From: a virus
Virus record (IMG/VR): IMGVR_UViG_3300035492_000309
Span: 1 to 64,000 of that record
Direction: 5' to 3' (one strand)
DNA length: 64,000 nt
How positions within the stretch are numbered: position 1 is the stretch's first letter; each line of letters opens with the position of its first letter. This document shows, one piece after another, positions 22,761 to 40,820 of this stretch. The notes under the pieces were generated by a model. The model did not search any database. It was not told the DNA's origin and saw only the letters and a program-made list of their open reading frames with translations. The position numbers and the translations under genes are program-made.

Positions 22761-22788
22761 CATAGAGGCTCCTTCGGGAGCCTCTATG
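22761..22788 (+). terminator. 12-bp hairpin plus TATGCCG
   Basis: CATAGAGGCTCC-TTCG-GGAGCCTCTATG then CCGTCT. Confidence 0.55.
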
Positions 22789-23613: not shown

Positions 23614-23665
23614 CATGCAGGAGAGTCTTCGGACTCTCCTGCATGTATGCCGCCTCCCTTTTTTA
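23614..23665 (+). terminator. 14-bp hairpin plus TATGCCG plus T-tract
   Basis: CATGCAGGAGAGTC-TTCG-GACTCTCCTGCATG TATGCCGCCTCCCTTTTTTATTTT. Confidence 0.7.
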
Positions 23666-24267: not shown

Positions 24268-25785
24268 ATGTCTAACGTATCGTTCGATAAACAGCCAGGG
24301 TTTTACGACGACCCTGCTACGGTCAATCTCGTGTTGTCCGATGCAGTGGAAAGCGTGCAGTACACGGTCAATGCCGGCGCACCGTCTATTTCCAAATACG
24401 TGGCCTACGACACCAGCAGTCCACCGGTCCCCTTTATTGCAGTCACCCAAGATGGTCTGGGCAATGTCGTGTACGACGGCGGATTCCCGAAGTTCTATAA
24501 CAGTGCTGCTCCGGCCGCTGGAACGCCCTTCGCGCAACTGACAGCCAGCTTTAAGTTCTTGTACAACACCCTGAACTTCATCGCCAACCCTGACAAGATC
24601 GCAGCAGGTAATCGCAAGGTTCTGCTTCTGGGCGACCAAACAACAGGCAACTACATGGTCAAAGACACAGCCAACAGCAGTGGCTTTGCTTTGAGCTTCA
24701 CTCGCCTGGCGCAGATTGCAGGTTTTGACCTGACCATTAAAGATGCCGCTGACTACCCCAACACCCAGCTCAACCCTACCTTGAGCGAGTTGAATCAGTA
24801 CGCTTGTGTCATCCTGATGTCGAGTACCAGTCTGGCCGGGTCCGATCGGATCACCGAACAGGCCATTGACGCTATCGTCCTCTATCGCGAGCAAGGTAAC
24901 GGGTTGTTTGTTGTCACCGACCATGGGGCAGTCATCAACACCATCGAAGAAGCCATTGTGTCGCGCGGCGGCTTCTTCAATATGGCTAACCGGGTAATCA
25001 CCCGTTTTGGTTGCTGGTTCTCAGGCGATTACAACCGGGTCCCGGTGAATGTAGGGTTCTTGCGCAGTACCTATGGCGATCATCCGCTTTATGCCGGGAT
25101 GACAGACAGCGAATCGATTTACGCCGGTAACTCTGAGAGTCGGGTATTCGTTGCCCAGACGCCCTCATACACACCGGGTAACGTACCTGCGTTTCAGATC
25201 GCCATAGGGCGCACTACCATTCAGGTTGCTGCTAACCTGAAAGACGGCAGCGTTGAGATTCTCCGAGTGTACTACTACGTCTTGGATTTCCAAGTGCTAT
25301 TTGGCAGTGCTGGGATCGGTGTGGTCAAGGGCGAAGAAATCGATGCTGGCCTGAGCAACGTGGTGGCCATCTCAGCTGCCATCAACGGGACCCCTCAAGA
25401 GACGGTATCGGGGATCGTCTACTTCAAAGATGTCCGCGTCGGTACAATCTCGTTCACCACAGCAGCCGGGTCACGGTTGACGTGGGACTCGGGTGTCTCG
25501 GGCACGTTCACGGTGCAAAACGGCGATGAGTTCAAGATCATCCTGACCGCGCCGTTGAACATGACCGCTGTACTTCGGGTCAAACGTTTCCAGCCTGAAT
25601 TGAACGTTACGCTAGTACCTGCGTCGTTTAAAACGTTGCAGGCTTACATGCCAACTGCCGCCCCTGTGAAACTGATGCGTCAGCTCTTTGCTGATCTTAA
25701 GACAGTGCCTGGTCATGCCACTGTCGAATTCACGCCGTCATTGCCACGGAACTTGCGTGCGTTACGAGCAATGTTTCGAACGTGA
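24268..25785 (+). CDS. putative receptor-binding / fibre-associated protein (505 aa)
   Basis: Sits between two fibre genes. N-terminus (FDKQPGFYDDPATVNLV....VQYTVNAG) resembles Fn3-associated (CHB_HEX_C-like) domains. Function unknown. Confidence 0.45.
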   Translation: MSNVSFDKQPGFYDDPATVNLVLSDAVESVQYTVNAGAPSISKYVAYDTSSPPVPFIAVTQDGLGNVVYDGGFPKFYNSAAPAAGTPFAQLTASFKFLYNTLNFIANPDKIAAGNRKVLLLGDQTTGNYMVKDTANSSGFALSFTRLAQIAGFDLTIKDAADYPNTQLNPTLSELNQYACVILMSSTSLAGSDRITEQAIDAIVLYREQGNGLFVVTDHGAVINTIEEAIVSRGGFFNMANRVITRFGCWFSGDYNRVPVNVGFLRSTYGDHPLYAGMTDSESIYAGNSESRVFVAQTPSYTPGNVPAFQIAIGRTTIQVAANLKDGSVEILRVYYYVLDFQVLFGSAGIGVVKGEEIDAGLSNVVAISAAINGTPQETVSGIVYFKDVRVGTISFTTAAGSRLTWDSGVSGTFTVQNGDEFKIILTAPLNMTAVLRVKRFQPELNVTLVPASFKTLQAYMPTAAPVKLMRQLFADLKTVPGHATVEFTPSLPRNLRALRAMFRT

Positions 25786-25825: not shown

Positions 25826-28072
25826 ATGTCGCCTCAAATCCAAGCACTCAAGCTCAAGCTTACAGGGTTGTTGACATCGATTTCTGAGCAAATTGCCAGC
25901 AAGCTCGATGCGACAGCCCCGGCGGTCAGTGCGTATAAGCTGACCAACCCCTTTAACCTGATCGTCACCGGCGATGCCACCGGCACCCAATCGGTATCGG
26001 GCGATACCAACGTCTCGATCGCGCTGACCCTGGCCAACACCGCGGTGGCTCCCGGTGTATACCCTAAAGTGACAGTGGACTCTAAAGGCCGCATCACCAA
26101 AGGTGAACTGCTGCTTGCTGCGGATATTCCGGCGCTGGATGCATCCAAAGTCACCACCGGTGCCTTCCACGTTGATCGGATTCCGGCCCTACCGACCAGT
26201 AAGGTCACTGGTCTGGATACCGCCCTTAATAGCAAGCTTAATGCGGCGCTGTATACTGCTGCTGACGTATTGGCTAAGTTGATCACCGTCGACGGTGCAG
26301 GATCGGGTATCGATGCGGACGCACTCGATGGTAAGCAACTGGCGACTATCGAAAGTGAGTACAAGGCATTTTGCAACGCCGCCATTGCTGCGCTGGTCGA
26401 CTCCTCCCCAGAGGCGCTGAACACACTCAATGAGTTGGCCACAGCACTGGGCAACGATCCGAACTTTGCCACCACCATCGCTACTCAACTGGGCACTAAA
26501 GTCAACGATGACGATGTCCGGTTGACCAACAGTCGTGAATGGACAGCCAGCACCATCACACAAGCCGAAGCCGAAGCCGGTATTGCGACGACTCGCCGTG
26601 CCTTTACTGCACAACGGGTCCGGCAAGCCATCGTGGCCTGGTGGATTGCCAGTGCCGAGAAAGCCAAATTGGACGGCATTGCCACCGGCGCTACCGCTAA
26701 CGCAACCGATGCTCAGTTGCGCGATCGTGCTACCCACACCGGGACTCAAGCCATCGATACAGTCAGTGGTTTGCAGACCGAGCTCGACGCCAAGGTGAAT
26801 CTGACCGATAGTCGTTTGACCGACGCGCGGGAATGGACTGGTGTAACCGTCGCTCAAGCCGAAGCCGAAGCAGGGACAGCAACCACTCGCCGAGCATGGA
26901 CAGCTCAGCGTGTTCGCCAAGCGATTGTAGCATGGTGGGCCGGGTCTGCTGACAAGACCAAACTTGACGGTATCCAGGCAGGCGCACAGGTTAACGTTGC
27001 CACTAACCTCAGCTATACTGCCGCCGCCAGCAACGGTACCGTAGCCAGTTCTACAGGCAGTAACGCCACTTTGCCGGCAGCCACTACAGCAGCGGCCGGC
27101 TTGATGACCGCCGCCGACAAGACCAAGCTCGATGGATTGAGCAATGTCGGTGGTACGGACCTTGGTTATACCTCATCAGCAAATGCCGGTACTGTGACCA
27201 GTTCCACAGGTGCCAACGCAACCCTACCTGCCGCTACGGCAGCAGCAGCAGGTTTGTTGACGGCATCTGACAAGAGTAAGCTGGATGGTATTCAACCCGG
27301 TGCTCAGGCCAACGTTGCCACTAACCTTACGTGGTCAGCTACTGCTACTGGCGGCACGGTCGCCAGTTCTACTGGCGGTAACGCAGCCTTGACCGCTGCG
27401 ACAACTGCTTTGGCTGGGCTGATGACCGCCGCTGACAAGAGTAAGCTCAATGACATAGACGCAGGCGCTACCGCCAACTCGGCCGATGCCACCCTGCTCA
27501 ACCGCGCTAATCATACCGGCTCGCAAGCAATCTCGACCATCACTAACCTGCAGGCATCACTGGATGCCAAGTTCAACAGCACAGGCGGCACTGTCAGTGG
27601 TGTTACCACCTTCAGCAATACCGGCAATGCGACCAGCGCGACCAGCGGCGCTGTGCGTGTTTCAGGTGGTCTGGGTGTTGTTCTGGATATCTATGCAGGC
27701 GGTAACATCACAGCCTACTCAGACCTTAGCTTGAAGACTGACATCCAGGTCATCAGCGATGCGCTGAGCCGTATCCGTCGTTCGCGTGGTGTGACCTTTA
27801 CACGTAAGGACACCGGTCAGGTCCAAGCTGGTTTCATCGCCCAGGAGATGTACAAAATCCTTCCAGAGGTTGTGGTAGGTGTACCGGGCTCCGGCAAGAT
27901 GGGTATCTGCTACGGCAATATCACGGCATTACTGGCAGAAGGCGTCAAGGAACTTGACGGGATTGTGATCGCACAGGGTGAGCGTATCGTTTCGCTGGAA
28001 GCCCAGGTCACATCCTTGAGTCAACGTATCGATGAACTTCAGGCTCTGTTCGAAGAGCTGGTTGCCAAATAA
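25826..28072 (+). CDS. long tail fibre with C-terminal intramolecular chaperone (peptidase S74-like) domain
   Basis: GVYPKVTVDSKGRITKG, PEALNTLNELATALGNDPNFA, repeated AGLMTAADK(T/S)KLDGI, and C-terminal SDLSLKTDI...GVTFTRKD...GFIAQE. Confidence 0.85.
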   Translation: MSPQIQALKLKLTGLLTSISEQIASKLDATAPAVSAYKLTNPFNLIVTGDATGTQSVSGDTNVSIALTLANTAVAPGVYPKVTVDSKGRITKGELLLAADIPALDASKVTTGAFHVDRIPALPTSKVTGLDTALNSKLNAALYTAADVLAKLITVDGAGSGIDADALDGKQLATIESEYKAFCNAAIAALVDSSPEALNTLNELATALGNDPNFATTIATQLGTKVNDDDVRLTNSREWTASTITQAEAEAGIATTRRAFTAQRVRQAIVAWWIASAEKAKLDGIATGATANATDAQLRDRATHTGTQAIDTVSGLQTELDAKVNLTDSRLTDAREWTGVTVAQAEAEAGTATTRRAWTAQRVRQAIVAWWAGSADKTKLDGIQAGAQVNVATNLSYTAAASNGTVASSTGSNATLPAATTAAAGLMTAADKTKLDGLSNVGGTDLGYTSSANAGTVTSSTGANATLPAATAAAAGLLTASDKSKLDGIQPGAQANVATNLTWSATATGGTVASSTGGNAALTAATTALAGLMTAADKSKLNDIDAGATANSADATLLNRANHTGSQAISTITNLQASLDAKFNSTGGTVSGVTTFSNTGNATSATSGAVRVSGGLGVVLDIYAGGNITAYSDLSLKTDIQVISDALSRIRRSRGVTFTRKDTGQVQAGFIAQEMYKILPEVVVGVPGSGKMGICYGNITALLAEGVKELDGIVIAQGERIVSLEAQVTSLSQRIDELQALFEELVAK
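26534..26644 (+). repeat. intragenic repeat unit 1 (REWT..QAEAEAG.ATTRRA.TAQRVRQAIVAWW)
   Basis: About 110-nt imperfect direct repeat of 26828-26938. Confidence 0.8.
26828..26938 (+). repeat. intragenic repeat unit 2
   Basis: Pairs with 26534-26644; shared strings include caagccgaagccgaagc and actcgccg. Confidence 0.8.
27719..28069 (+). other. S74-type auto-cleaving chaperone domain of the fibre
   Basis: YSDLSLKT (Ser-Lys dyad context), then a coiled-coil LEAQVTSLSQRIDELQALFEELV at the very C-terminus. Confidence 0.6.
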
Positions 28073-28098
28073 CCCAATTCGTTTAAGGTAACACGAAC

Positions 28099-28587
28099 AT
28101 GTCAATCCCCTCGATGGATTTCAAGTACAACAAGCAAGCAGCGATTGGTGACACCTGGAAACGGGCTTCGTCGATCATCATCTACAACGACTATGGTCAG
28201 GTTCCACGCGTGATGTTCGCTGAAGAACAGATCGTGGAAGTCGATGGTGGGATCTTCCGGCGCCCGGCGGGTGAGTTGATGATGGTCATCGACAACAGCA
28301 ACCTGTTCGAAGAGTTCGAGGTACTTAACCCCGACGGCACGCCCTCCGGACAGATGGCCAGTGTGGCTCAATTGGCAGCACTTCTCACTTCTTCGTACGT
28401 GCATTTTGCCGACAAGCGCGATGAGGAAGTTCGTCGTCTGCAAGAGTTGCTCGAACAGGAAGAAGAGCCTCCCGTCGAACCTGAACCCACCCCAGAAACA
28501 GACCCCGTGACTGAAGAGCCTGTAGTCGAAGAGCCGGTCACTGATCCGGCTCCAGTGGATGACAGTGGGTCGTCTGAAACAATCTAA
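28099..28587 (+). CDS. hypothetical protein with acidic Pro/Glu-rich tail
   Basis: C-terminus EEEPPVEPEPTPETDPVTEEPVVEEPVTDPAP. Confidence 0.7.
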   Translation: MSIPSMDFKYNKQAAIGDTWKRASSIIIYNDYGQVPRVMFAEEQIVEVDGGIFRRPAGELMMVIDNSNLFEEFEVLNPDGTPSGQMASVAQLAALLTSSYVHFADKRDEEVRRLQELLEQEEEPPVEPEPTPETDPVTEEPVVEEPVTDPAPVDDSGSSETI

Positions 28588-28596
28588 AGACGACAT

Positions 28597-28626
28597 AGAG
28601 GAGGGGATCGCCCCTCCTCTTTATTC
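28597..28626 (+). terminator. hairpin
   Basis: AGAGGAGGGG-ATCG-CCCCTCCTCT followed by TTATTC. Confidence 0.6.
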
Positions 28627-28651
28627 AGGATAGATATTCTCGGAGAATAAC

Positions 28652-29245
28652 ATGGCACTGCCATCATCAGGTCCTATTTCGTTAGCGAATGTCAGGTCGG
28701 AACTCGGCCTTTCAGGCCCTATCAGCCTTGGTCAGAGTAACGTGAGATCACTGGCAGGTCTAAGCTCGGGTGCTATCTCCCTAGCATCTCTGCGTGGTAA
28801 GTCCGCAGCACCAGTCGTACCCGGCATCGTGTCGTTTAGTCTTTATGCATCGAATTACACTGACGGTTCCGTCCTCAATACAGGTTTCTCAAATGGCGTT
28901 TATGGGTCAGTGAGCCCTGGAAGTGTTCTTGGTGCAGCCATCTTGCAAGTGAGGCTCTACCGTTTAACGAATACGGACGGCTCCTATGCATACATGATCT
29001 ACTTTCAACTTAATACCCCTGGCAATACCCAGACGGCGGCTGTACGAGGGATAAATATTGGCGGGATTACCATTGCCGGGTATGTAACTCGCGACCAAGA
29101 TATTAAAGGCGCCAATCTAAATACGTGTAGTTTTAAATCTACTAACGCGGCAGGTTGGATGGGTGGTGTGGTTCTGACCGTGTCCCAGTGGCAAACGATC
29201 TACAACGCTATCCTCAACAAGACAACCACAGTCACATTGGTCTGA
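28652..29245 (+). CDS. putative virion/fibre protein with N-terminal ISL..(V/L)R repeats
   Basis: GPISLANVRSELGLSGPISLGQSNVRSLAGLSSGAISLASLRGKS; lower GC by eye. Confidence 0.5.
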   Translation: MALPSSGPISLANVRSELGLSGPISLGQSNVRSLAGLSSGAISLASLRGKSAAPVVPGIVSFSLYASNYTDGSVLNTGFSNGVYGSVSPGSVLGAAILQVRLYRLTNTDGSYAYMIYFQLNTPGNTQTAAVRGINIGGITIAGYVTRDQDIKGANLNTCSFKSTNAAGWMGGVVLTVSQWQTIYNAILNKTTTVTLV

Positions 29246-29267
29246 CCATTTAAAAAAGGTATTGCAT

Positions 29268-29495
29268 ATGCTTAGGGTAGTCACTATCCGATCATCAAGC
29301 GCTGTCGTTCGTGATGATATCGGCGAATCAAAGATCGATTTTCTACCACTTGATCTCGGTGGACTGTCGGTGAAAGAAGCATTTGTTTTGGGTATGGCTT
29401 ATTCACTTCTCAAGAACAGAGGTCTCCCTATTGAGGAGACACCCCCATCAGTCCCGACACTCATAGACCGTCACCCTGACAGTGAGGAGATCTGA
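29268..29495 (+). CDS. hypothetical small protein
   Basis: ORF opens at TTG 29262; ATG at 29268. Confidence 0.5.
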   Translation: MLRVVTIRSSSAVVRDDIGESKIDFLPLDLGGLSVKEAFVLGMAYSLLKNRGLPIEETPPSVPTLIDRHPDSEEI

Positions 29496-29497
29496 CC

Positions 29498-30127
29498 ATG
29501 GAATTTCTACCTAAGGGTTGGGAAGTGCGCGTCCTGCCCAAATTCAAAGTCTACGAACTGAGCCTGAATAAAGATCAGTACGTGGTCTTGGCTATCGATG
29601 TCCCGCCGGAGTTTCGTTTCGAAGGCAAAGAGATTGGAGTCAACACCTATCGGGCCAATGCTATCGTGCGTGGCGCAGTGAAGTTTGTTTCGGCTACATT
29701 GCCTGACTTCGAACGGCGGCGCGGTGATACCACCCTTGATGCTCGCTTAACTGTCAAGGGTGAGTACCGGGTACAGGGCAGTGAGGATGACAGTAAGTTT
29801 GTTTGTATCATGGCCAACGACCCACTGGAGAAACTCTACGGTGCTCGTAACGTAGCTTTGGCGCCCGGCGAAGAAGTGACCTTCGATTTCTCTGAACTTG
29901 AACGCAATGTGTTCATTATCGAAGGGAGTGTGGACATTGGACTGACCACTCATTCAGCGTTCAAACACCTCAAGCTAACCAAACCCCAAGAATACACATT
30001 CATCAACAACAGTGAAGAAAATGCCTTCTTGGTGTATATGTATGAAGTGACGAAGGAGGAGGTCAAGTCCCTCTATCCTGAAGTGTCACCTGAGGCCATG
30101 GCCAGCGTACAAATTCTACAGGGGTGA
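29498..30127 (+). CDS. hypothetical protein, possibly a cupin-like beta-barrel
   Basis: Beta-rich sequence; starts 2 nt after the upstream stop; its stop overlaps the RBS of the next gene. Confidence 0.6.
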   Translation: MEFLPKGWEVRVLPKFKVYELSLNKDQYVVLAIDVPPEFRFEGKEIGVNTYRANAIVRGAVKFVSATLPDFERRRGDTTLDARLTVKGEYRVQGSEDDSKFVCIMANDPLEKLYGARNVALAPGEEVTFDFSELERNVFIIEGSVDIGLTTHSAFKHLKLTKPQEYTFINNSEENAFLVYMYEVTKEEVKSLYPEVSPEAMASVQILQG

Positions 30128-30135
30128 GGAGCTAC

Positions 30136-30933
30136 ATGAACATGTTCAAACCAACCAACACCAACATGGTCTGGGGGAACCGGATCATCATGACGTCGGC
30201 GGCAGTTGCGCCGATCGTTGCGTTCTTTCAGTTCAATCCAGTTCTGGTGATAGCAGCGCTCGTGCTGTGGCAAGTCCTGAACGTAGTAGGCATCAGCGTC
30301 GGAGTCCACCGGTACTATTCGCACAAGGCCTTTGAGACCCATCGGTTCTGGCAGTGGGTGATGTCGTACTGTGCCATGGTCTCACTGGTCGGGCCGCCCT
30401 GCATCTGGGCTGACACCCACATGACCCACCACCGCAAGGCGGATACGCCAGAAGACCCTTATCGTAAATTGCAGCTGACCGGTGAATCACCGTTCGACCA
30501 CAAGACCACTGTCAGCAAGCGCTTTCTGCTGAGCATGATCTCACGTGATCCGCTGCATCAACTGACGATCAAGTACTACTGGCTCTACGTGGCATCCTAC
30601 GTCGTGGGCATGACTGCGCTGGGTATGTTGGCAGGTTTGAACGCGTTCGAGGCTGTCTTCTGGCTATGGATGGTGCCGGCAGGTATGTCCCAACTGACCC
30701 TGCGTTTCGTCCTCTGGACTGGTCACGTCAAGGGGCTGGGTTATCAGACCTACGACAATGGCGACCTCAGCAACAACTGGTGGTTCGCTTCTCTGATCGC
30801 AGGTGGCGAAGGCTGGCACAACAACCACCACAAACGTCCCAAGCGCGCTAAGCTGGGCGAGAAGTGGTGGGAGTTCGATCCAGGTTACTGGTTCATCTGC
30901 CTGATTCGTTCCAAGAAGACTGAGGCTGCGTAA
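30136..30933 (+). CDS. membrane fatty-acid desaturase, Delta9 (acyl-CoA/acyl-lipid) type, copy 1
   Basis: Three His boxes in the canonical order and context: GVHRYYSHKAF, THMTHHRKADTPEDPY, GEGWHNNHHKRP. Hydrophobic helices flank them. GAGGAG RBS. Confidence 0.8.
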   Translation: MNMFKPTNTNMVWGNRIIMTSAAVAPIVAFFQFNPVLVIAALVLWQVLNVVGISVGVHRYYSHKAFETHRFWQWVMSYCAMVSLVGPPCIWADTHMTHHRKADTPEDPYRKLQLTGESPFDHKTTVSKRFLLSMISRDPLHQLTIKYYWLYVASYVVGMTALGMLAGLNAFEAVFWLWMVPAGMSQLTLRFVLWTGHVKGLGYQTYDNGDLSNNWWFASLIAGGEGWHNNHHKRPKRAKLGEKWWEFDPGYWFICLIRSKKTEAA

Positions 30934-31676
30934 TGCGCCTGCTCCAGTCTGACCACCGACAGGCTGCGGCGATGACCATCCTTGCGATGGTCATCTCTGT
31001 CGGGGCGCTTTTTATGCCGAACGCATGGTGGCTCTTAGGTTCGTTCTGCATGTTCCAGGTATACTGGATTGCAGGACTCTCGGCCGGGAACCATCGATAC
31101 TTCACTCATCGCTCATTTGAGACCACGCCGTTTTGGCGTGAGTTTATGATCTGGGCGACCTGCACCAGTTTATCTGGCCATCCCGGATTCTACGCGATCA
31201 TTCATCTGGAGCATCACCTGAAGTCCGATACGCCAGAAGACCCGCACCACTATTACGCTCAAAGCGGCATGGTGTCGTTTAAGAACATCAACGTCAAGAT
31301 GACTCCGGGCATGAAACGGCGCTTCATTTCCGACCCGATCATGATGCGCACCTACCGGTACTACTTCGCGTATTCGTTCGCAGCCATTGCCCTGCTGTCG
31401 TTGATCTCACTGGAAGCGCTCATTTACCTGTGGGCCCTGCCAGTGGTGGCGATGCAGTTTGCCCGCAAATACGTGACCATCAAATGGATTCACGAGTTCG
31501 GTTACGTGTCTTACGAGACAGGTGAGGGCTCGAAGAACTCCAAGCTACTGGGCTGGCTATTCGGTGGCGAGGGACTGCACAACAACCACCACAAGTTCCC
31601 TAACCGGTGGAACTTTGCCATCAAGAAGTGGGAAGTCGATCCCACCTCCTGGTTTGTGAGGATGATCAAGAAATGA
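30933..31676 (+). CDS. membrane fatty-acid desaturase, Delta9 type, copy 2
   Basis: GNHRYFTHRSF, HLEHHLKSDTPEDPH, GEGLHNNHHKFP. TAATG overlap with copy 1. Confidence 0.8.
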   Translation: MRLLQSDHRQAAAMTILAMVISVGALFMPNAWWLLGSFCMFQVYWIAGLSAGNHRYFTHRSFETTPFWREFMIWATCTSLSGHPGFYAIIHLEHHLKSDTPEDPHHYYAQSGMVSFKNINVKMTPGMKRRFISDPIMMRTYRYYFAYSFAAIALLSLISLEALIYLWALPVVAMQFARKYVTIKWIHEFGYVSYETGEGSKNSKLLGWLFGGEGLHNNHHKFPNRWNFAIKKWEVDPTSWFVRMIKK

Positions 31677-32596
31677 GACTGAACCCGATGCAACGGGCCT
31701 TCTCAGGCCACGGTAAACAGATGACCTACGGGGCATTGTTTATCCCGCAGTTCGATTGTCCGTCACATGTCCTGATGGAGGCGGCAAATGAGATCGCTCA
31801 GCAGATCCCGTTCATGCGTGCTGACTGGAAGGATGGCAAGGTGGAGCTGGCAGAACGGTTGGTACTGCTGACCGGCCATCCACGGGATCACCTTGATCAC
31901 CCTAGCTGCTTTAAGGTGATCGAGTGTGACGACGGCTACTGGATGTCCTTTACCCATGAGTTCCTTGATGGCTGGAGTTACAGTCGTCTGACTCAGGAAA
32001 TCTTCAGGGTAGCCGCTGGAGGCGAACTCGGTGTTTATGAGACGCCTTCGACTGTGCCTAAGATTGTACCGAACAGCTTGTTCAACCCACGGGAATTCAC
32101 CTTTGAAGGCATCGAGGGTGAGGCTGAGACTCACACTGTCTTTATCAGTGACAATTACTTAAAGCGCGCTAAAGCGGCTGGCATGCGTGTACAGGACTTC
32201 TTGGCTCAGGCGGCATGCGAGGCCTTGGGAAATCCGAACATCATCACCAGCAAGATTCTGGAAGGGTTTGAGCACTGTTATGGGCACTACTCTCTATACG
32301 GTTCCGGATCGCTTAAGAACGGTCGTTTTTCTCTGGACTGCAGTCATGAAAACCTGACTCGGTTGATGATCGCCCATGGTCAGAGCGAGACCACCGGTAA
32401 TTGTTTCGTGGGTTCGTCGCCGATGGGCATGACCAACTACGAGACCCCACAGATCTTTCAGATGTTGAAGAAAAATCAGATGGGTCGAGTGCAGGCGGTG
32501 TCTATGAATGGACAACATCGGGTGCGTATTGCACTCAATCAAGCTATTCAAGACAAAGATAAAGTCATCGACTCTATCCTTCAGGCATTTGCCTAG
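31673..32596 (+). CDS. HxxxDG acyltransferase-like (condensation / CAT-superfamily-like) protein
   Basis: ATGA overlap with desaturase 2. N-terminus LNPMQRAF and SFTHEFLDGWSYSRL resemble the start and HHxxxDG catalytic motif of condensation / WS-DGAT / PapA5-type acyltransferases. Confidence 0.4.
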   Translation: MRLNPMQRAFSGHGKQMTYGALFIPQFDCPSHVLMEAANEIAQQIPFMRADWKDGKVELAERLVLLTGHPRDHLDHPSCFKVIECDDGYWMSFTHEFLDGWSYSRLTQEIFRVAAGGELGVYETPSTVPKIVPNSLFNPREFTFEGIEGEAETHTVFISDNYLKRAKAAGMRVQDFLAQAACEALGNPNIITSKILEGFEHCYGHYSLYGSGSLKNGRFSLDCSHENLTRLMIAHGQSETTGNCFVGSSPMGMTNYETPQIFQMLKKNQMGRVQAVSMNGQHRVRIALNQAIQDKDKVIDSILQAFA

Positions 32597-32597
32597 T

Positions 32598-32634
32598 CGA
32601 CATATAGGGCGGGGTAATCCCGCCCTATATGTCG
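32598..32634 (+). terminator. 16-bp perfect hairpin ending in TATGTCG
   Basis: CGACATATAGGGCGGG-GTAAT-CCCGCCCTATATGTCG. Confidence 0.55.
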
Positions 32635-32677
32635 CGTGACCAATCCTACGTAACCCGTTAAACTCACTCAGGGATAA

Positions 32678-32962
32678 AGGAACTCCAATGAATTTGTTCG
32701 CCTGATTCTGCCACTGCTGGCTGGAGTGCAGAGCGGGCAGGTAGGTGATGATTGGGCCAACTTCTCGTACGCAGATTTGGGAATGGTTGACTCAGGTGCA
32801 CGTACAGTCATCCAAGAAGCGTCAATAGAAAAAGACTCTACTGGTGAGTGGTGGCGCTGGTATATGGGTCGGTCATTGGCACACGACTATGTTTACTACA
32901 CGTCCATGTCGGCTCGAGAGCCCGGTTACGGCTGGCGTCCGGTATTGGAGCTGGTCGAATAA
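32678..32962 (+). pseudogene. possible remnant or short member of the WRPVLEL fibre-module family
   Basis: Ends ...EPGYGWRPVLELVE like the three genes at 34059-36860. No in-frame ATG (GTG at 32726). An RBS-preceded ATG at 32688 is out of frame and stops after 5 codons. Confidence 0.3.
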
Positions 32963-33022
32963 CCTGACAGAGCCACCAATCCTATGAGACTGGATATTCC
33001 GCCTCATGCGAGGATTTGACTC

Positions 33023-33460
33023 ATGTTTGAGCTTTCGCTTCCTCAGTACACCGACACCTTGGGAATCGGGAAGTTCTCCCATTTCGACACCCGTGAACTC
33101 AAGCGTCGCCTGTATCTGATGCTCGATGATTTTACCTACCATGATGAAGTCTTCGGACCCATCACGGTCAAGAAAGGCTTCGAGACCAACTACGCCAGTC
33201 TGGATGCATTGCGCAATCTGTTCCTGTTTCCGCTCTACGCACTGTTGGCGGATTACGGGGATAAAGCTGCTACCATCCATGACTGGTTGTACAGCGGCAA
33301 CCCGGTCACACTCGCCGATGGCACGACCCGTGTCCTGACGCGTGAAGAAGCCGATGCCGTGTTCTATCGTGCTTTGCGAGATGAAGGTATTGCTCGCTGG
33401 CGCGCTGCGATTTTCTATGCCGGTGTTCGCATCGGTGGTGAAAGTCATTTCAAGGGGTAA
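33023..33460 (+). CDS. DUF1353-family protein
   Basis: FETNYAS...ATIHDWLY...TREEADAVFYRALRDEG...IFYAGVRIGG fits the DUF1353 pattern. Confidence 0.55.
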   Translation: MFELSLPQYTDTLGIGKFSHFDTRELKRRLYLMLDDFTYHDEVFGPITVKKGFETNYASLDALRNLFLFPLYALLADYGDKAATIHDWLYSGNPVTLADGTTRVLTREEADAVFYRALRDEGIARWRAAIFYAGVRIGGESHFKG

Positions 33461-33488
33461 CCCGTTTTATCTACACTGAGAGATCGAC

Positions 33489-34001
33489 ATGCAAGAAGCT
33501 CAAATGCAGGCGCTGTTGGCATCCCTTGCCAATTATAGCGGTAAAGTTAAAACCGCCATTGAAAATGGCGATGCGGCGGCGGTTGCCGAAATCGACCGAC
33601 TGATCGTCGAGCTGAAACAATCCTACGACGCTGAAAATGTCGAGATGGGTCTGTACAGCGGTGGCGACATCGGTGTGGCCATCACCGAGCGTTACGTGGA
33701 TCTGGCCGATGCGGCCGTGATCGATTGCTGGGTGGCGAACCATTTCGGCAAGGTCGTCTCGGCCCCGGTAGCCTTCAGCCTTGAGCGCGTACCGGATGCC
33801 GGCCGTGCCTACACCTTCACCCTGCGCCTGACCAACGGCGGTGCGCACGCCATCACCTGGTGGCCGAACATCTTCTGGTCGGATGGTACCAAACCAGAAC
33901 TGTCGGCAGCCGGTCGTGACACCCTGGCGTTCAGCACTGTCGATGGCGGCGCTACCTGGGATGGCTACTTGCTCGGCAAGGGCATGGTGCAGGTCGTTTA
34001 A
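33489..34001 (+). CDS. putative fibre/baseplate-associated protein
   Basis: C-terminus ITWWPNIFWSDGTKPELSAAGRDTLAFSTVDGGATWDG resembles C-terminal domains of phage fibre proteins. Confidence 0.45.
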   Translation: MQEAQMQALLASLANYSGKVKTAIENGDAAAVAEIDRLIVELKQSYDAENVEMGLYSGGDIGVAITERYVDLADAAVIDCWVANHFGKVVSAPVAFSLERVPDAGRAYTFTLRLTNGGAHAITWWPNIFWSDGTKPELSAAGRDTLAFSTVDGGATWDGYLLGKGMVQVV

Positions 34002-34011
34002 CCTTGGTTGA

Positions 34012-34040
34012 GGCCTGTGGGGTATCCCATAGGCCTTTAT
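34012..34040 (+). terminator. hairpin
   Basis: AGGCCTGTGGG-TAT-CCCATAGGCCT (one G-U pair) followed by TTATT. Confidence 0.5.
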
Positions 34041-34058
34041 TACCTGAGAGGTAACCCT

Positions 34059-35030
34059 ATGCTCTATGCACTTATGATGGCTGCTTCACGCCGTCGACAG
34101 GGGTTTAACCCGTTTCGATATACAGGTCCCGGCCCCGATCAACTGATCGCAGGAACTGTCGAGGCCGGTTACTTCGGAGAGGTGGCAGATAAAGACCTGA
34201 TTACCACTGCCGCCCTGTCACAATTGGTTGGAATGAACTCAGGTACTCTCACTGCGAACAATAGCACGTGGCTGAAGTTCATGCACAACCGCAAAACACT
34301 GTTCGTACCGAAGCTACCTGCTCGCTACGCAGTGTCTTGGGACATGTTGTACGAGGCGGGTCTGGTCTATGGTATCGATGGTCCTGGCCCATACGTCGGT
34401 TCAAACGGCCCTGTGAACCAAAACAAGGTCATTGTCATTGGCGGTAACGCGTTTGTTGTTCGCTTGATGAAAGGCGGTGATGTCAACCCGGCGACTAAGC
34501 CAGGCGGTGAATTCAATGACCTGATGCTTAAGTTGTGGGTGTCTGACCCGACTGGCGGCAATTGGGATAATCAGGAAGCGGCAGCCCTGGGTTTGAGCGG
34601 CACTGGCGGACTGAACTGGATGCAAGAAAGTCCGGCATCTAACGTAAATGCCGTTGGTGGATTCCGCATCTTTCGAAGCGGTCAAACTCAACTGACCGAC
34701 GTCTCCGCGTCCTCTGTCAGCTCAGCATCCGGGTCATTCGGCTGGCGTCCAGTACTGGAACTAATTCCAAACGATCTCTATACGTTCGCTATTGAGAAAG
34801 TAGAGTCGCTAGGCGGAACACCTACTCTGTTTGCTCCGGCAGGGTTGGAAGGGACTGGCATCGAAACGCTTGTAGCGATGCGGACCATTACCCCACAAGC
34901 GGATTCTCCATTGATTGTTGGTGACATTCAAGGTCAGCCATTCGAATCTGCTTTAGCACCGCGTCTCGTCATTGGCGGTGCTAACGAACCCCTGGTTTCA
35001 ATCGCCGATATCCAAGGCATCACTGTTTGA
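34059..35030 (+). CDS. WRPVLEL-family receptor-binding-like protein, copy 1
   Basis: GYFGEV...W.KF..N.KTLFVP...SWDMLYEAGLVYG...VRLMKGG...WRPVLELIP. ATG 34059 follows GAGAGG. Confidence 0.6.
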   Translation: MLYALMMAASRRRQGFNPFRYTGPGPDQLIAGTVEAGYFGEVADKDLITTAALSQLVGMNSGTLTANNSTWLKFMHNRKTLFVPKLPARYAVSWDMLYEAGLVYGIDGPGPYVGSNGPVNQNKVIVIGGNAFVVRLMKGGDVNPATKPGGEFNDLMLKLWVSDPTGGNWDNQEAAALGLSGTGGLNWMQESPASNVNAVGGFRIFRSGQTQLTDVSASSVSSASGSFGWRPVLELIPNDLYTFAIEKVESLGGTPTLFAPAGLEGTGIETLVAMRTITPQADSPLIVGDIQGQPFESALAPRLVIGGANEPLVSIADIQGITV

Positions 35031-35041
35031 GGTAGTTTCTG

Positions 35042-35995
35042 ATGCAGATTAAACTTGTTTGGGAGAACCCCAACGTCACCGCCACGACCACCAAGGTATA
35101 CCGTGGCACCCAGCCTCTGGATCGGGCTAACCTGAGTAACCCACTGGCTACGCTAACTCAGGGTGAGACCACCTGGACCGATGCTACGGCCATCGCTGGC
35201 CAACGGTACTACTACGTGCTGGAAAGCCTGTCGGCGCGTGATCGTGCAGTCTCGCACAACATCGAGGCCTGGGCTTTGCCACGTACGGGTCCTGGCCCCC
35301 AGACCCTGATGGGTGGTGATCATGAAGTCGGTTATTACGGCGACTTGTTATCTGTCAATTTCATCACGCTCACTGGATTGCGCGCAGCGTTGAATTTCAA
35401 TGTAGGCGGTACCGTTATCGACGCGCCAGTATGGATGAAGTTTGCTTACAAGGGCAAAACGTTGTTCATTCCATCACAGCCCCTGGCTTCCGGCATCAGT
35501 TGGAAAGCACTTTACGACGCAGGACTGGTCTACGGGACTAACGATGATGGATCGAGCCTCTACACTGGCGCTAAGGTTAATCAGCGCCGCACCGTCAAGA
35601 TCGGTCTTGAGACTTTTATTGTCCGTCTGATGACAACGGCTGCACCGAGGCCCGACCGCGGCATCGTCTACCCAGGCGGCGCTATTGAACTACCTACGCA
35701 GACAATCGGTTCTGAATGGGATGATCTGATTTATCGGGTGTGTGAATGGGTTCCTTCGACGCAACGTGGTTCGAACTTTGGCAGCAAGACACGAAGTGAC
35801 TTTAACAGCTTTCAACCGTGTCTGACGCAGGAACTTATAGTCGATAATCCTACATCCTGCGTCCTTCGTGGAACAGCCTCATTGGGAACTAAAGGCTCGT
35901 TGTCATACGCTAGCATCCTTCAGATAACGACGGGTGCCCACTGGCGTCCTGTACTGGAACTAATTCCAGACTATCAAGTTAACCTGTCCATCTAA
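35042..35995 (+). CDS. WRPVLEL-family receptor-binding-like protein, copy 2 (FN3-like N-terminus)
   Basis: N-terminus LVWENPNV..TKVYRG...YYYVLES; core GYYGDL...WMKFAYKGKTLFIP..ISWKALYDAGLVYG..VRLMT..SEWDDLIYRV...WRPVLELIP. Confidence 0.65.
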   Translation: MQIKLVWENPNVTATTTKVYRGTQPLDRANLSNPLATLTQGETTWTDATAIAGQRYYYVLESLSARDRAVSHNIEAWALPRTGPGPQTLMGGDHEVGYYGDLLSVNFITLTGLRAALNFNVGGTVIDAPVWMKFAYKGKTLFIPSQPLASGISWKALYDAGLVYGTNDDGSSLYTGAKVNQRRTVKIGLETFIVRLMTTAAPRPDRGIVYPGGAIELPTQTIGSEWDDLIYRVCEWVPSTQRGSNFGSKTRSDFNSFQPCLTQELIVDNPTSCVLRGTASLGTKGSLSYASILQITTGAHWRPVLELIPDYQVNLSI

Positions 35996-36008
35996 GGGGA
36001 ATTAAGAC

Positions 36009-36860
36009 ATGCCTCTCCAATTGACCTGGAAAGACCGTAACCTCTTTTCAGACGGCACGCGTATTTATCGCAGCGAACAGCCCATGAGCCCGGCGGCGCT
36101 GCCAGCGCCTTTGGTCACCCTAGCGCCCGGTGTCATGAGCTACATCGACAATGACGTGGTACAGAACAAACTGTACTACTACATCCTTGAAACGTTCAAG
36201 GGCAACGACAAACTACAGTCGTCTGAACATGTGCTAGGGTCGTTCCCGTACACTGGACCCGGTCGTAATCAACCACTGCGGGGAGACTTCCGCGATGGTT
36301 ATTTCGGCACCTTGACCATGTCGGAGATGTTCACCGATATGGAACTGTACGCGCTCCTGAGTCCAGGTGGCAACAGGTTAGCCAACGCAACCAAATGGTT
36401 CAAGTTTGCATTGGACGGTAAAATCCTGTTCACCCCCGATAACGCCATGGGCGTCGACATGACCTGGAATGCCCTGAACCAGAAGAATCTGGTGTTTGGG
36501 TTTAACGGACCGAACCCACCTGCTCAGGTTGAGAAGAACGGTCATCGTTTTGCGGTCAGACTGTTCACCGGCACTAACAATCCGACTGAAGTCATGTCGA
36601 GTAGCAACCGTCCGACCGATAAAAGCGAATGGGATCGTCTGATCTATCGTATCGTACAAGGTCAGGTTGCCACTGAGGGACCCAAATGGGATGATTTCAC
36701 CCATGCTCAGGCCAATGGCACTAACTTCTTTCTCATGCAGGATCTAGGTGCCAATACTTCTTCTCGAGTTTCCCGTGGCGGGAATGGGGTCAACGGCATT
36801 ACTTCTGCGGCCGCCACCAACCCCGGCCACTGGCGTCCTGTACTGGAACTCATCTTCTGA
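36009..36860 (+). CDS. WRPVLEL-family receptor-binding-like protein, copy 3 (FN3-like N-terminus)
   Basis: LTWKDRNL..TRIYRS...YYYILET; GYFGTL...WFKFALDGKILFTP...VRLFTG..SEWDRLIYRI...WRPVLELIF. Confidence 0.65.
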   Translation: MPLQLTWKDRNLFSDGTRIYRSEQPMSPAALPAPLVTLAPGVMSYIDNDVVQNKLYYYILETFKGNDKLQSSEHVLGSFPYTGPGRNQPLRGDFRDGYFGTLTMSEMFTDMELYALLSPGGNRLANATKWFKFALDGKILFTPDNAMGVDMTWNALNQKNLVFGFNGPNPPAQVEKNGHRFAVRLFTGTNNPTEVMSSSNRPTDKSEWDRLIYRIVQGQVATEGPKWDDFTHAQANGTNFFLMQDLGANTSSRVSRGGNGVNGITSAAATNPGHWRPVLELIF

Positions 36861-36871: not shown

Positions 36872-37318
36872 ATGATCCGTATCTTACTGATCATCTTGGG
36901 TCTTTGCATTTATATCCCAAATACAAATGCCGAGACCATCGAACTCACGTCCATGAATGTGGTCAGGGTTTATGATGGTGACACCATCACCGTCAATCTA
37001 CCGGGTCAGTTGCCCGTCTTTGGTGCAGCACTCGGGGTACGGATCAGGGATGTCAACACCCCAGAGTTAACCAGCACCTGTTCCACAGCTGCCTTGAAAA
37101 CTGCTGAGAAGTTAAAAGCTCAGCAGGCTCGGCAATTAGTGGATGATCTGGTCAGTAAAGGACGCGTCATTGTCCTGTCTGACCTAGGTCGGGACAAGTA
37201 CTTCAGGTTGTTGGCGCGCGTATCGGTAGATGGTACCGATGTGGCCACCCGGCTAATTGAAAGCGGGCTGGCTGACCATTACACCGGTGGGACTAAGGTC
37301 TCCTGGTGCGGTCGGTAA
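36872..37318 (+). CDS. secreted staphylococcal-nuclease (SNase/thermonuclease)-like nuclease
   Basis: Signal peptide MIRILLIILGLCIYIPNTNA; VYDGDTITV, VRIRDVNTPE, GRDKYFRLLARV..DG.DV...LIESGLA. Confidence 0.75.
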   Translation: MIRILLIILGLCIYIPNTNAETIELTSMNVVRVYDGDTITVNLPGQLPVFGAALGVRIRDVNTPELTSTCSTAALKTAEKLKAQQARQLVDDLVSKGRVIVLSDLGRDKYFRLLARVSVDGTDVATRLIESGLADHYTGGTKVSWCGR

Positions 37319-37326
37319 GTGATAAA

Positions 37327-37358
37327 CATACGGAGAGGGCTTAAGCCCTCTCCGTATG
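37327..37358 (+). terminator. 14-bp hairpin plus TATGCCG
   Basis: CATACGGAGAGGGC-TTAA-GCCCTCTCCGTATG then CCGTG. Confidence 0.55.
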
Positions 37359-37408
37359 CCGTGTGAAATGGTATGTACCCTTACCCTTTTCATAATGGAG
37401 ATTGTCTC

Positions 37409-37954
37409 ATGGGCGCTGTTGTTGACGCGTATAACCGGTACGCCGCGAAGATTACAAGCTTGCTTGAAGCAGGGTATACCAGCCTGGTTACTCATGCTGA
37501 AACCGGTAGCTGGTGGCGGGCTCGAATCATGACACTATCGGTCTGGTCGCTAGGCGGTATCCATGGTCCGCCGAGTACCACAGGTCTCCCACCCGATGAT
37601 CTGGGTCAGACTGAGAACATTTACATCCATTTCAAGTTGCCCTTTACCCCTACTGATGATTTTTGTTGTCGTTTGGACATTGACGGTTATCAATACGGTG
37701 GCGGTAAGATTGTACGTGGGCAGTTTTTTGTAGGGCGATTGGCCGGTGTCGTTAACAGTCACGTCCAGGGAACCACTGCACACGGCCCTGCTGTGTATGT
37801 CGACGCCAACGGGTATGTAGTCTGTCGACTGTTCTTCAGCAGTGCCTATGTACTTAATCTGACGGTCTCAGGCTTTGCCGAGAACGATGCGCATCGTGCT
37901 GCTCTGAGCAACATCAGAGCTAAAGCCAGTTTGTCCACCACCCTTACCTTCTGA
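37409..37954 (+). CDS. hypothetical virion-associated protein, tandem paralog A
   Basis: Shares NIYIHFKLP, GYQYGGGKIV, YVDANGYVV and SSAY..NLTV with the next gene. Confidence 0.6.
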   Translation: MGAVVDAYNRYAAKITSLLEAGYTSLVTHAETGSWWRARIMTLSVWSLGGIHGPPSTTGLPPDDLGQTENIYIHFKLPFTPTDDFCCRLDIDGYQYGGGKIVRGQFFVGRLAGVVNSHVQGTTAHGPAVYVDANGYVVCRLFFSSAYVLNLTVSGFAENDAHRAALSNIRAKASLSTTLTF

Positions 37955-37961
37955 GTCAGTC

Positions 37962-38540
37962 ATGAATAGCACTATTTGGACCACCCTTAAAGACAAACTG
38001 AGCAACTACCTCTTTACCGTGCGCAACACCCTGACGCACTATGAGAACCAGAAGTTTATCATTGGGCCTGAAACGGCAATCGGGACCGTGTTTCGCAATG
38101 TCTACCGCCTGATGATCTACAGCATTAATGAAACCACGAAACGGGTCGGTGGCGACCCTGTGGATGTCTCCGGCATCAGTACACAAAACAACGTCTACGT
38201 TCACATTAAGTTGCCAGGGAACATCCAGCTCAATACCTGGATGCATCATGTCCGCGTCCGAGGATATTCTTACGGCTCTGCTAAAATAATTGACTGTACT
38301 TATGTTGGCTATAGTTACAGCCCGACCGGATCGTTCCTCAATCGAGAGGCGATCGGTACGATCACAGTCGATCAGTACACCGATACCAATGGCAATATTG
38401 TTATTTCGTTCCTATTGCCGGTGGCTTATTACACCTCGTTTGAAGTCGAGACCATGAAATGTGGTGTCGGCGCTGGAATTAAACGTGGTATGTTGAAGTG
38501 TAAGCTCTCGACGTCTAACCGGGTAGTGTTTCCAGTTTGA
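37962..38540 (+). CDS. hypothetical virion-associated protein, tandem paralog B
   Basis: NVYVHIKLP, GYSYGSAKII, YTDTNGNIV, VAYYTSFEV. Confidence 0.6.
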   Translation: MNSTIWTTLKDKLSNYLFTVRNTLTHYENQKFIIGPETAIGTVFRNVYRLMIYSINETTKRVGGDPVDVSGISTQNNVYVHIKLPGNIQLNTWMHHVRVRGYSYGSAKIIDCTYVGYSYSPTGSFLNREAIGTITVDQYTDTNGNIVISFLLPVAYYTSFEVETMKCGVGAGIKRGMLKCKLSTSNRVVFPV

Positions 38541-38769
38541 ATGAACAATCTTTCAACCCTACATTGTGTAGGGGAGAAATACCTATTGTATGTACAGGCA
38601 GTGATTCTGTCTAGTGAGGGGGTGATCCAGCTCAGCGATACCCGGTCCGCAAGATGGCCTCGACGGGAAGTCGTAACCTGCGACCACGGCGCCTGTACGA
38701 TGCTCTGCATGGTTTACGCCATGCAGAGCATTTATGCCGGCCGCCTACTCATTTACCTTAGGTAAAACT

Positions 38770-39159: not shown

Positions 39160-39184
39160 CTACAAACAACGAGGATCAGTTACC

Positions 39185-39598: not shown

Positions 39599-39603
39599 TT
39601 GAA

Positions 39604-39653
39604 CATAGAGCCGGGGTAATCCCCGGCTCTATGCCGCCGCCTTCTTTTTTTTC
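39604..39653 (+). terminator. 13-bp hairpin plus TATGCCG plus T-tract
   Basis: CATAGAGCCGGGG-TAAT-CCCCGGCTCTATG CCGCCGCCTTCTTTTTTTTCTT. Confidence 0.7.
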
Positions 39654-39737
39654 TTGTTCCGTAATTAAAAATTCTGGAGCAATACATTATAAGCGTGATT
39701 AAACTAATGCCAACCATAACCTAGAAGGAATGTATAC

Positions 39738-40812: not shown

Positions 40813-40820
40813 ATATCACC

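Follow-up and report, generated by a model that had tools for sequence, protein, structure and literature searches.

To date, fatty-acid desaturases carried by viruses (vFADs) have been regarded as lone "membrane fluidity" helpers. Those of cyanophages were shown experimentally to be Delta9 lipid desaturases (Roitman et al. 2017, PMC5776448), and the Delta9-type vFADs of Marinobacter and Colwellia viruses from Arctic brine and sea ice were read as membrane-fluidity genes (Zhong et al. 2020, PMC7300359). Here we analyse a 64,000-nucleotide stretch of viral DNA (positions 1 to 64,000 of IMG/VR record IMGVR_UViG_3300035492_000309, hereafter the window), whose structural proteins match phiKZ-like jumbo phages and which represents the start of such a genome; the window coincides with the first 64 kb of JGI metagenome contig Ga0376444_000014 (162.5 kb). 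Four consecutive genes on its plus strand are in question: a bicupin-fold protein (29498-30127), two compact membrane desaturases, DesA (30136-30933) and DesB (30933-31676), and a protein called X (31673-32596), a putative stand-alone member of the condensation/CoA-dependent acyltransferase superfamily. An earlier, sequence-only reading of this DNA had mentioned desaturases as single genes of cyanophages, which is right for those phages (PMC5776448) and has to be extended to viruses of heterotrophs (PMC7300359). It was also not aware of a described desaturase-desaturase-acyltransferase module in a phage of a heterotrophic Gram-negative host; our literature searches, which covered jumbo-phage desaturases and desaturases accompanied by a condensation domain, an acyl carrier protein (ACP) or a ketosynthase, returned nothing relevant. 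Phage desaturases as single genes are thus nothing new, but in the literature searched we met no description of the multi-gene module, of the X family or of the desaturase arrays presented below. With middling confidence, we read the region as a phage-specific lipid-tailoring operon, accessory cargo behind a receptor-binding S74 tail fibre, which would encode a specialised pathway of unsaturated-acyl tailoring and transfer.

Both desaturases fall, as anticipated, within the Pfam family FA_desaturase (PF00487). DesA matches it at E=1.8e-18 (67.6 bits) and DesB at E=2.7e-14 (54.0 bits), each above the gathering threshold of 29.7 bits. On the NCBIfam equivalog model of the DesA family (NF049918, cut-off 400 bits) they reach 67.5 and 59.2 bits respectively, both far under the cut-off; the phage proteins would be related to that family without being its equivalogs. 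In a direct search against the structures of mouse and human stearoyl-CoA desaturase (SCD), DesA aligns with SCD1 (4ymk) at E=7e-9, with boxes 1-3 in register, and the DesB family profile matches SCD1 (4zyo/4ymk) at E=8e-17 across residues 29-244, nearly the whole core.

The three histidine boxes noticed in the sequence are HRYYSH, HMTHHRKADTPEDPY and GEGWHNNHHK in DesA, and HRYFTH, HLEHHLKSDTPEDPH and GEGLHNNHHK in DesB. They stay complete when 17 phage sequences are aligned with five desaturase homologs from further afield (the sources name two, as a stearoyl-CoA desaturase and a plant acyl-CoA desaturase): the nine SCD1-type di-iron histidines, arranged 2+3+1+3, are present in every DesA and DesB, in every copy of a third desaturase, DesC, that some relatives carry, and in the five distant homologs. 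In DesA these are H58, H63, H95, H98, H99, H197, H228, H231 and H232; in DesB, H54, H59, H91, H94, H95, H187, H216, H219 and H220.

The compact size is also borne out, with 263-265 residues for DesA and 247 for DesB; bacterial and plant Delta9-type desaturases have about 320-390. Compared with their relatives, both are short at either terminus and lack about 12-15 residues following His box 2. A crude Kyte-Doolittle scan, which is no true topology prediction, places hydrophobic stretches of DesA and DesB alike at about residues 11-45 and 150-169; two hydrophobic hairpins are consistent with a four-transmembrane topology. DesA and DesB are diverged paralogs, as had been proposed, and their 33% identity marks an old pair. 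Judged from sequence, their place in the Delta9-type family (SCD, DesC and the plant enzyme ADS) is solid, and they are predicted to be intact, selectively maintained integral-membrane di-iron enzymes of the stearoyl-CoA/DesC "first desaturase" family.

The third protein had been singled out for a condensation- or chloramphenicol acetyltransferase (CAT)-like start and an HxxxDG motif. X does start with MRLNPMQRAF and carries FTHEFLDGWS. Motif and fold support the assignment and the profile matches are in keeping with it, but a Pfam Condensation match is absent and the protein is about 130 residues shorter than a canonical domain. As a single sequence, X has no match in Pfam (E<=0.1), PHROGs, NCBIfam or the Protein Data Bank (PDB). 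Twelve family members, spanning 24-79% identity, all retain H95, D99 and G100; lengths across the family are 287-321 residues, and the first histidine of the HHxxxDG motif is replaced by Thr, Ser, Asn or Asp. Three further regions are, as we take it, like the C1, C2 and C5 motifs of condensation (C) domains: LNPMQRAF, IPxxRA and, about 150 residues past the histidine, CFVxSxPxG.

The family is small. Five homolog clusters of X occur among 5.8 billion proteins, and its profile has 11 matches among 1.84 billion representative proteins: nine belong to the family (eight of 287-321 residues, one a 99-residue fragment), and the remaining two are giant nonribosomal peptide synthetases (NRPSs), with one match per C domain at the HHxxxDG motif. 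Against the PDB, the family profile finds only NRPS C/E domains, best bacitracin synthase 3 (E=0.0026), followed by McyA, surfactin synthetase and McyB. With hhalign, X and 11 C domains align over 83 columns, which include a C2-like "P.LR" segment, at E=1e-4 and a probability of 58%. X was not found in the 185,579 species genomes scanned, and the BFVD collection of viral structures yields no structural analog at E<=1e-3. A pattern scan of JGI metagenome contigs was empty too, but carries no weight, since the known JGI contigs are evidently missing from that collection.

The acyltransferase fold foreseen for X was recovered by AlphaFold and Foldseek as a two-lobed CAT-like fold, with a poorly modelled C-lobe. 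The model has 183 PDB matches at E<=1e-3, of which the top 50 are all of the condensation superfamily; the best is 8f7g (E=1.2e-9, TM about 0.5), and the matched types comprise C, Cy, E and CT domains, PapA5, VibH and SgcC5. By its hydropathy the 307-residue protein is soluble. We conclude that X, as modelled, would be a divergent, shortened, stand-alone member of the condensation/CoA-dependent acyltransferase superfamily and not a canonical Pfam Condensation domain.

Upstream of DesA, the suspicion of a cupin-like protein was well founded. The AlphaFold2 model of this soluble 209-residue protein (pLDDT 75, pTM 0.74) matches, at E=2e-7 to 1e-5 in Foldseek, DR1152 (1sfn, E=2e-7), 3rns, BacB, AerE, YhaK and the oxalate decarboxylase OxdC, which assigns it a double beta-barrel (bicupin) fold by model match. 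Pfam returns only a sub-threshold Pirin_C similarity (16.4 bits, cut-off 27). Because H157 is the sole invariant histidine among seven bicupin homologs, the classical His/Glu metal site of cupins is probably missing. Only 7 homolog clusters of the bicupin exist among 5.8 billion proteins, all metagenomic.

These genes travel together. Comparison of the window with related metagenomic or database loci, labelled L with a number, recovers the module from no fewer than nine independent metagenomic loci, which represent two or more phage backbones. The conserved unit comprises two small proteins, p197 and p77, the bicupin, DesA, DesB and X, joined in some relatives by DesC. The same synteny recurs in L007, L009, L016 and others. 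Gene order in L009, L011 and L012 (the last two identical to L024 and L025) is that of the window. L007 reads fibre, p200, p115, bicupin, DesA, DesB, X, DesC, and L016/L017 reads fibre, p182, p73, bicupin, DesA, DesB, X, DesC; L003/L005 has a fibre and, further on, bicupin, DesB, X and DesC. On a different backbone (108 kb, with PhoH, DnaB and Hfq), L015, identical to L019, carries fibre, p207, p185, DesA, DesB and X; a bicupin homolog was not detected there when p185 and p206 were checked. L020 shows DesA, DesB, X and a DUF1353 gene, L022 bicupin, DesA, DesB and X, and L013 DesB and, at some distance, DesA and bicupin. In L026-L028 a hidden Markov model (HMM) scan of the open reading frames (ORFs) found the full module, gene order not being read out.

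Wherever the surroundings of X could be retrieved (the window, L003/L005, L007, L009, L015, L016, L020, L022 and L024-L028), a desaturase adjoins it, and bicupin orthologs occur in L003, L007, L013, L016, L022 and L024-L028. Both X and the bicupin are confined to this module, always beside these desaturases. By BLAST, DesA, DesB and DesC form three orthologous groups, with 43-59% identity within and 26-35% between groups; each paralog would therefore be kept for a role of its own. Rates of nonsynonymous to synonymous change (dN/dS), computed against three relatives, are 0.06-0.08 for DesA, 0.013-0.03 for DesB, the most conserved gene of the module, 0.04-0.08 for X, 0.05-0.18 for the bicupin and 0.24-0.27 for p197, which evolves fastest and is co-conserved with the enzymes. 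Purifying selection on the module is strong. Since the Pfam matches reach E=1.8e-18 and 2.7e-14 and dN/dS for DesA, DesB and X lies at 0.01-0.08, the pattern of the locus is not one of chance.

The module also seems to recombine and move. Between the window and L011 (IMGVR_UViG_3300011868_000001, 253.7 kb), DesA, DesB and X are 96-98% identical, p197 46%, p77 56% and the bicupin 74%; such mosaicism implies, on sequence comparison, recombination breakpoints between the bicupin and DesA, and p197 would recombine independently of the enzymes. Among isolates, Pseudomonas phage pPa_SNUABM_DT01 comes closest (265 kb; 72.6% and 49% amino-acid identity, each on a different virion protein), yet it lacks the whole block 25826-33022. 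Its homolog of the 505-residue virion protein directly abuts the DUF1353 gene, so that the block is an insertion or replacement relative to this isolate. In the DT01 region compared (L010, 16001-19152), the homolog is itself longer, at 896 residues, and has a Laminin_G_3 domain. The receptor-binding module appears to have been swapped at this position, the window having a separate S74 fibre together with the cassette. Found on at least two unrelated backbones and absent from the nearest isolate, the module is predicted to be horizontally mobile. As the closest relative is a Pseudomonas aeruginosa jumbo phage, a Gram-negative heterotroph is a plausible host; the samples behind these sequences seem to be of sewage or wastewater type.

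We considered an assembly artefact or host contamination and dismissed both: independent assemblies from JGI, Logan, ENA and IMG/VR agree in gene order, with phage structural genes on the flanks. The same genes stand in uncultivated viral genomes of 253.7 and 269.8 kb, which places Delta9-type desaturases in a bona fide phage genome.

A wider survey puts the cassette in context. Scanning IMG/VR with the DesB alignment gave 196 stretches, of which 78 loci were kept; their ORFs were then scanned with our own HMMs over a 9-kb range. Two or more compact desaturase genes lie within 9 kb in 52 of the 78 loci, and at least three in 26; on related viral contigs, desaturases in tandem are thus the usual state. 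Arrays reach seven genes (L034 and L041), eight (L044) and ten (L045). Their members are diverged paralogs with a median identity of 27-40%, and 156 of 189 keep the three histidine boxes under a strict pattern. The arrays of L034 and L045 span 8845-14385 and 133-14173; further examples, within L029-L101, are L041, L091, L060 and L032. Only five of the 78 loci unite X, bicupin, S74 fibre and p197, and these five are the orthologous cassettes. Phage desaturase arrays have no description in the literature searched.

The neighbours of nine such arrays include radical SAM enzymes (six, three of them with a B12-binding domain), ketosynthases (three), phosphopantetheinyl transferases (PPTases; two), enzymes like ketoacyl-ACP synthase III (KAS III; two) and Rieske proteins (two), as well as a short-chain dehydrogenase/reductase (SDR) of enoyl-ACP-reductase type, 2-oxoglutarate (2OG) oxygenases and rubrerythrin. 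Ketosynthase homologs stand beside the arrays of L041 and L043-L045. L034 is ordered as carrier protein, TauD-like protein, type III polyketide synthase (PKS)/KAS III-like enzyme, PPTase, 2OG oxygenase and seven desaturases; L060 begins with an S74 fibre and a p197-like protein and continues, further on, with a ketosynthase, five desaturases and an SDR of enoyl/ketoacyl-ACP reductase type. Phage markers at the arrays comprise a head maturation protease, a late sigma factor, baseplate and tail-fibre proteins and Acb1.

This survey bears on the plainest explanation of the cassette, namely that the desaturases are fluidity cargo raising the unsaturation of host phospholipids, for instance in cold or stressed hosts, while X and the bicupin have an accessory part or none in it. 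DesA and DesB are of one enzyme family with the cyanophage vFADs, whose Delta9 lipid desaturation is established (PMC5776448), and the Marinobacter and Colwellia virus enzymes were read in this very way (PMC7300359). The window supplies no carrier or activating enzymes, and L013 manages without X. For fluidity, however, one enzyme would do, whereas two or three ancient paralogs are each kept; they are coupled to an acyltransferase-like X that is predicted to be catalytically intact and is never found without them; and among related viral desaturases, arrays of as many as 10 stand next to genes for ACP, PPTase and ketosynthase. Likely hosts such as Pseudomonas, moreover, make unsaturated fatty acids through FabA/FabB and desaturases DesA/DesB of their own. 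We consider this explanation rather unlikely, though the least so of the three alternatives weighed here.

A tailoring pathway is favoured over it because the old paralogs are each kept, because they are coupled to an X never found without them and because related arrays stand beside carrier-dependent chain-building enzymes. In the infected cell, DesA and DesB would use O2 and host-supplied electrons to insert cis double bonds in an acyl chain; the two old paralogs, joined by a third in some relatives, would act at different positions or on different carriers. The general-base histidine of X would then move the acyl group from a thioester, acyl-CoA or host acyl-ACP, to a hydroxyl or amine acceptor. 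For the bicupin, which probably lacks a metal site, binding of a ligand or of the acceptor is likelier than redox catalysis. The pathway would yield either a specific envelope lipid in remodelled form or a defined conjugate of an unsaturated acyl group, not a bulk change of fluidity.

A broader version of this reading is more doubtful. The cassette may be one form of a widespread, apparently undescribed class of phage lipid biosynthetic clusters, built on arrays of mini SCD-type desaturases (2 to at least 10) and in some cases equipped with their own ACP, PPTase and ketosynthase; in the window, the mini condensation enzyme known only from phages would draw on acyl thioesters of the host in their stead. 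The products would be polyunsaturated or otherwise tailored acyl conjugates that work with the tail-fibre module, e.g. a lipidated adhesin or a receptor-masking lipid.

Several observations weigh against the tailoring pathway. A Pfam scan of the cassette and of the other 70 ORFs of the window found no carrier protein, PPTase, acyl-activating enzyme (acyl-CoA ligase) or redox partner, and ferredoxin, cytochrome b5 and flavodoxin genes are absent from all 64 kb. L013 keeps DesA, DesB and the bicupin without X, so X is not indispensable. The sequence similarity of X to C domains is limited to about 40-80 residues, and its AlphaFold model is moderate (pLDDT 58, pTM 0.63), with a good N-lobe and a poor C-lobe (187-252). 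The position beside a fibre may be only a hot-spot for cargo. Finally, DesA (VLWTGH) and DesB (IKWIH) lack the asparagine that DesC and cellular relatives keep four residues before the lone histidine (VNSxxH); we take this position to be N265 of mouse SCD1, which presumably positions a water ligand.

The missing asparagine also invites the thought that DesA and DesB perform another di-iron oxidation: hydroxylation, acetylenation, conjugation, or desaturation of a non-fatty-acyl substrate, as in NRPS/PKS pathways. Their unusual compactness, with short termini and a deletion after His box 2, their scores far under the DesA equivalog cut-off, a partner of NRPS-type condensation fold and the 2OG, TauD, Rieske and radical-SAM enzymes near related arrays would all suit such chemistry. 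The nine ligand histidines and the GEGxHNNHH context are nonetheless those of bona fide Delta9-type desaturases, and positive evidence for another chemistry is lacking. Of the alternatives, we hold this one to be the least probable.

The constant company of a tail fibre deserves separate treatment. Ahead of the cassette lies a 748-residue tail fibre (25826-28072) with a C-terminal Peptidase_S74 intramolecular-chaperone domain (PF13884) and matches to many tail-fibre PHROGs. Such an S74 fibre precedes the module in 11 of 11 loci with enough flank (L003, L007, L009, L013, L015, L016 and L024-L028). The fibre-like gene noticed at position 28652 encodes p197 (28652-29245), a small fibre- or adhesin-like protein: its N-terminus matches phrog_26817 and contains GPISLxxxRxELG repeats, and its homologs adjoin S74 fibres in L003, L007, L013, L015 and L016. 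Some of these are larger and share the N-terminus, one with a faint GP38 match; against the PDB, p197 has no significant match.

It follows p162 (28099-28587), which is acidic (pI 4.05), has a tail rich in Glu and Pro and is present only in the closest relatives, and precedes p77 (29268-29495), a conserved protein of 75-77 residues with orthologs in L003, L013, L016 and L009. In p77 (77 residues in the window) the LGGLS motif resembles a phosphopantetheine attachment site. A role as acyl or peptidyl carrier was nevertheless rejected: the serine is not kept in orthologs (DLGDKT, DLAGMD, DLTDKT), and there is no PP-binding match.

With fibres so near, the enzymes could serve the virion or its receptor, either by acylating a phage protein such as the p197 adhesin or by altering a lipid or glycolipid of the envelope by which the fibre recognises the cell; the latter would bring superinfection exclusion or spare the progeny adsorption to debris. 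The S74 fibre and a p197-like adhesin stand ahead of the module in all 11 of these loci despite differing backbones, L060 likewise joins them to a ketosynthase and five desaturases, and the cassette sits among late structural genes. Condensation-fold enzymes such as PapA5, matched by the fold of X (1q9j), acylate specific hydroxyl or amine acceptors. The support is purely positional, however, and regions adjoining fibres are common sites of cargo; p197 recombines apart from the enzymes (46% against 96-98% identity in L011), and most other viral desaturase arrays have no fibre within 9 kb, as judged with a narrow S74 profile. We hold a receptor- or virion-linked role to be improbable, less so than another oxidation chemistry but more so than plain fluidity cargo.

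All genes around the cassette are on the plus strand, and every ORF named in the sequence-only reading is present where it was placed. The cassette indeed lies within a tail-fibre cluster, as Pfam and PHROG matches attest: a virion protein (24268-25785) and the S74 fibre are upstream; a DUF1353 or tail-assembly-chaperone-like gene (33023-33460), a tail-fibre protein (33489-34001) and three paralogous virion proteins (34008-36860) are downstream. A 78-residue ORF with a GTG start (32726-32962, plus strand) lies between X and the DUF1353 gene. Its end, GYGWRPVLELVE, repeats the motif with which the three paralogous virion proteins terminate (WRPVLELIP), and the ORF would be a small paralog or remnant.

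The gene junctions are as tight as had been described. The bicupin stop lies within GGGGTGAGGAGCTACATG and overlaps the GAGGAG ribosome-binding site of DesA; DesA and DesB overlap by 1 nucleotide (gcgTAATGcgc), and DesB and X by 4 nucleotides in an ATGA-type junction (aagaaATGAgac). Bicupin, DesA, DesB and X are all four translationally coupled. In L007, five genes overlap in a chain.

Two hairpins had been taken to bracket a single transcription unit. Both are real and strong. The upstream one (28597-28620, plus strand) is GC-rich and terminator-like, with a 10-bp stem followed by UUUAUU, a dG of -20.4 kcal/mol and a z-score of -3.9. The downstream one (32598-32634, plus strand), directly after the X stop, has a 16-bp stem, a dG of -31.9 kcal/mol and a z-score of -7.0; it lacks a U-run, and its 3' arm ends in CTATATG, as in this phage's other intergenic hairpins. 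A terminator scan called neither of them. Perfect stems of at least 9 bp number 19 across the window, and because such hairpins are general punctuation in this genome, they mark the unit's boundaries without proving a single transcript, which is only plausible.

Intergenic hairpins of the window share a common design, in which the 5' arm begins with CATA(C/G)AG and the 3' arm ends in ..CT(x)TATG followed by CCG or TCG, with a (C/T)TATGCCG motif. They are found at 5401-5434, 22761-22788, 23614-23645, 37327-37358, 38700-38731, 39604-39633, 48091-48117, 52671-52700, 53538-53563 and 61873-61904, in addition to 32598-32634. At no more than one mismatch, CTATGCCG occurs 61 times, against 42 +/- 6 expected. 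These hairpins look like the combined terminator/promoter punctuation of this phage.

Elsewhere in the window (ORFs within 1-24254 and 36872-42142), Pfam identifies homing-endonuclease domains of the GIY-YIG/NUMOD3/I-TevI and LAGLIDADG types, as well as a thymidylate kinase, a dihydrofolate reductase and an NAD-dependent ligase. A thymidylate synthase ORF of 380 residues (15221-16363, plus strand) covers only part of its PHROG profile, which suggests an insertion.

Relatives among sequenced phages are remote. A megablast of positions 28000-33500 against 50,697 phage records gave no match, and the only genuine DesA relative in these records belongs to Pelagibacter phage Mosig (MT647606), at 24% identity; DesA and DesB share at most 24-28% identity with any isolate-phage desaturase. 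Desaturase matches filed under "Acinetobacter phage MD-2021a" (CAKLQH020000002.1 and CAKLQF020000003.1; L018, 254 kb) were set aside as a bacterial chromosome filed as phage, for it carries trpB/trpC, btuB, baeSR and aidB. In Mosig (L023, 54720-65316), the desaturase belongs to a cargo cluster with aminotransferases, an FMN reductase, a peroxiredoxin, a TauD-like dioxygenase and a methylase, one more phage cargo region rich in oxygenases.

In place of the single helper gene, the locus and its relatives present multi-enzyme lipid modules. Should the enzymes act as proposed, infected cells would make a phage-specified lipid or lipoconjugate, a new virus-directed metabolism in heterotrophic bacteria, and the very compact desaturases and a minimal condensation enzyme would be of use to enzymology and engineering. 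Their constant place behind receptor-binding fibres raises the question of a link between lipid chemistry and adsorption or superinfection.

Set beside the vFADs of cyanophages and brine viruses, DesA and DesB are likewise phage-borne Delta9-type (SCD1/DesC-like) membrane desaturases with three histidine boxes, encoded among accessory genes. Those are single genes, whereas here two or three diverged paralogs are coupled to X and the bicupin behind a tail fibre. The desaturase of Mosig is compact too (216 residues) and directly follows a gene annotated with an Asp_Arg_Hydrox domain; we take this LpxO-like domain for a beta-barrel oxygenase, presumably a loose parallel to the order of bicupin, then desaturase. 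Mosig differs in having a single desaturase, no X homolog and no adjoining fibre.

With SCD1, DesC and plant ADS, and the P. aeruginosa DesA and DesB, the phage enzymes share the Pfam family and the nine histidines in the same order and spacing. Unlike the crystallised SCD1 constructs of 318-339 residues, they have 247-265, and in contrast to SCD1-type enzymes their cassette has no cytochrome b5 or oxidoreductase partner nearby. X, for its part, is shorter than the matched solved domains of the condensation family (307 against about 400-450 residues) and, unlike NRPS condensation domains, has no carrier protein or adenylation partner nearby. It resembles the NRPS C superfamily (VibH, 1l5a; PapA5, 1q9j; SgcC5, 4znm; the starter C domains of lipoinitiation) in its fold, matched at E down to 1e-9, and in its His-x3-Asp-Gly motif, which lies after a beta-strand and before a helix in a DGWS context.

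Desaturase-family enzymes reportedly occur inside NRPS/PKS pathways as well: the acetylenases JamB and TtuB are said to act on acyl-ACP, and SylB takes part in the syringolin pathway. The cassette of the window differs from these in lacking an ACP or acyl-ACP synthetase; what it has in common with them is the pairing of a desaturase homolog with thioester/condensation chemistry, an analogy of logic and not of family membership.

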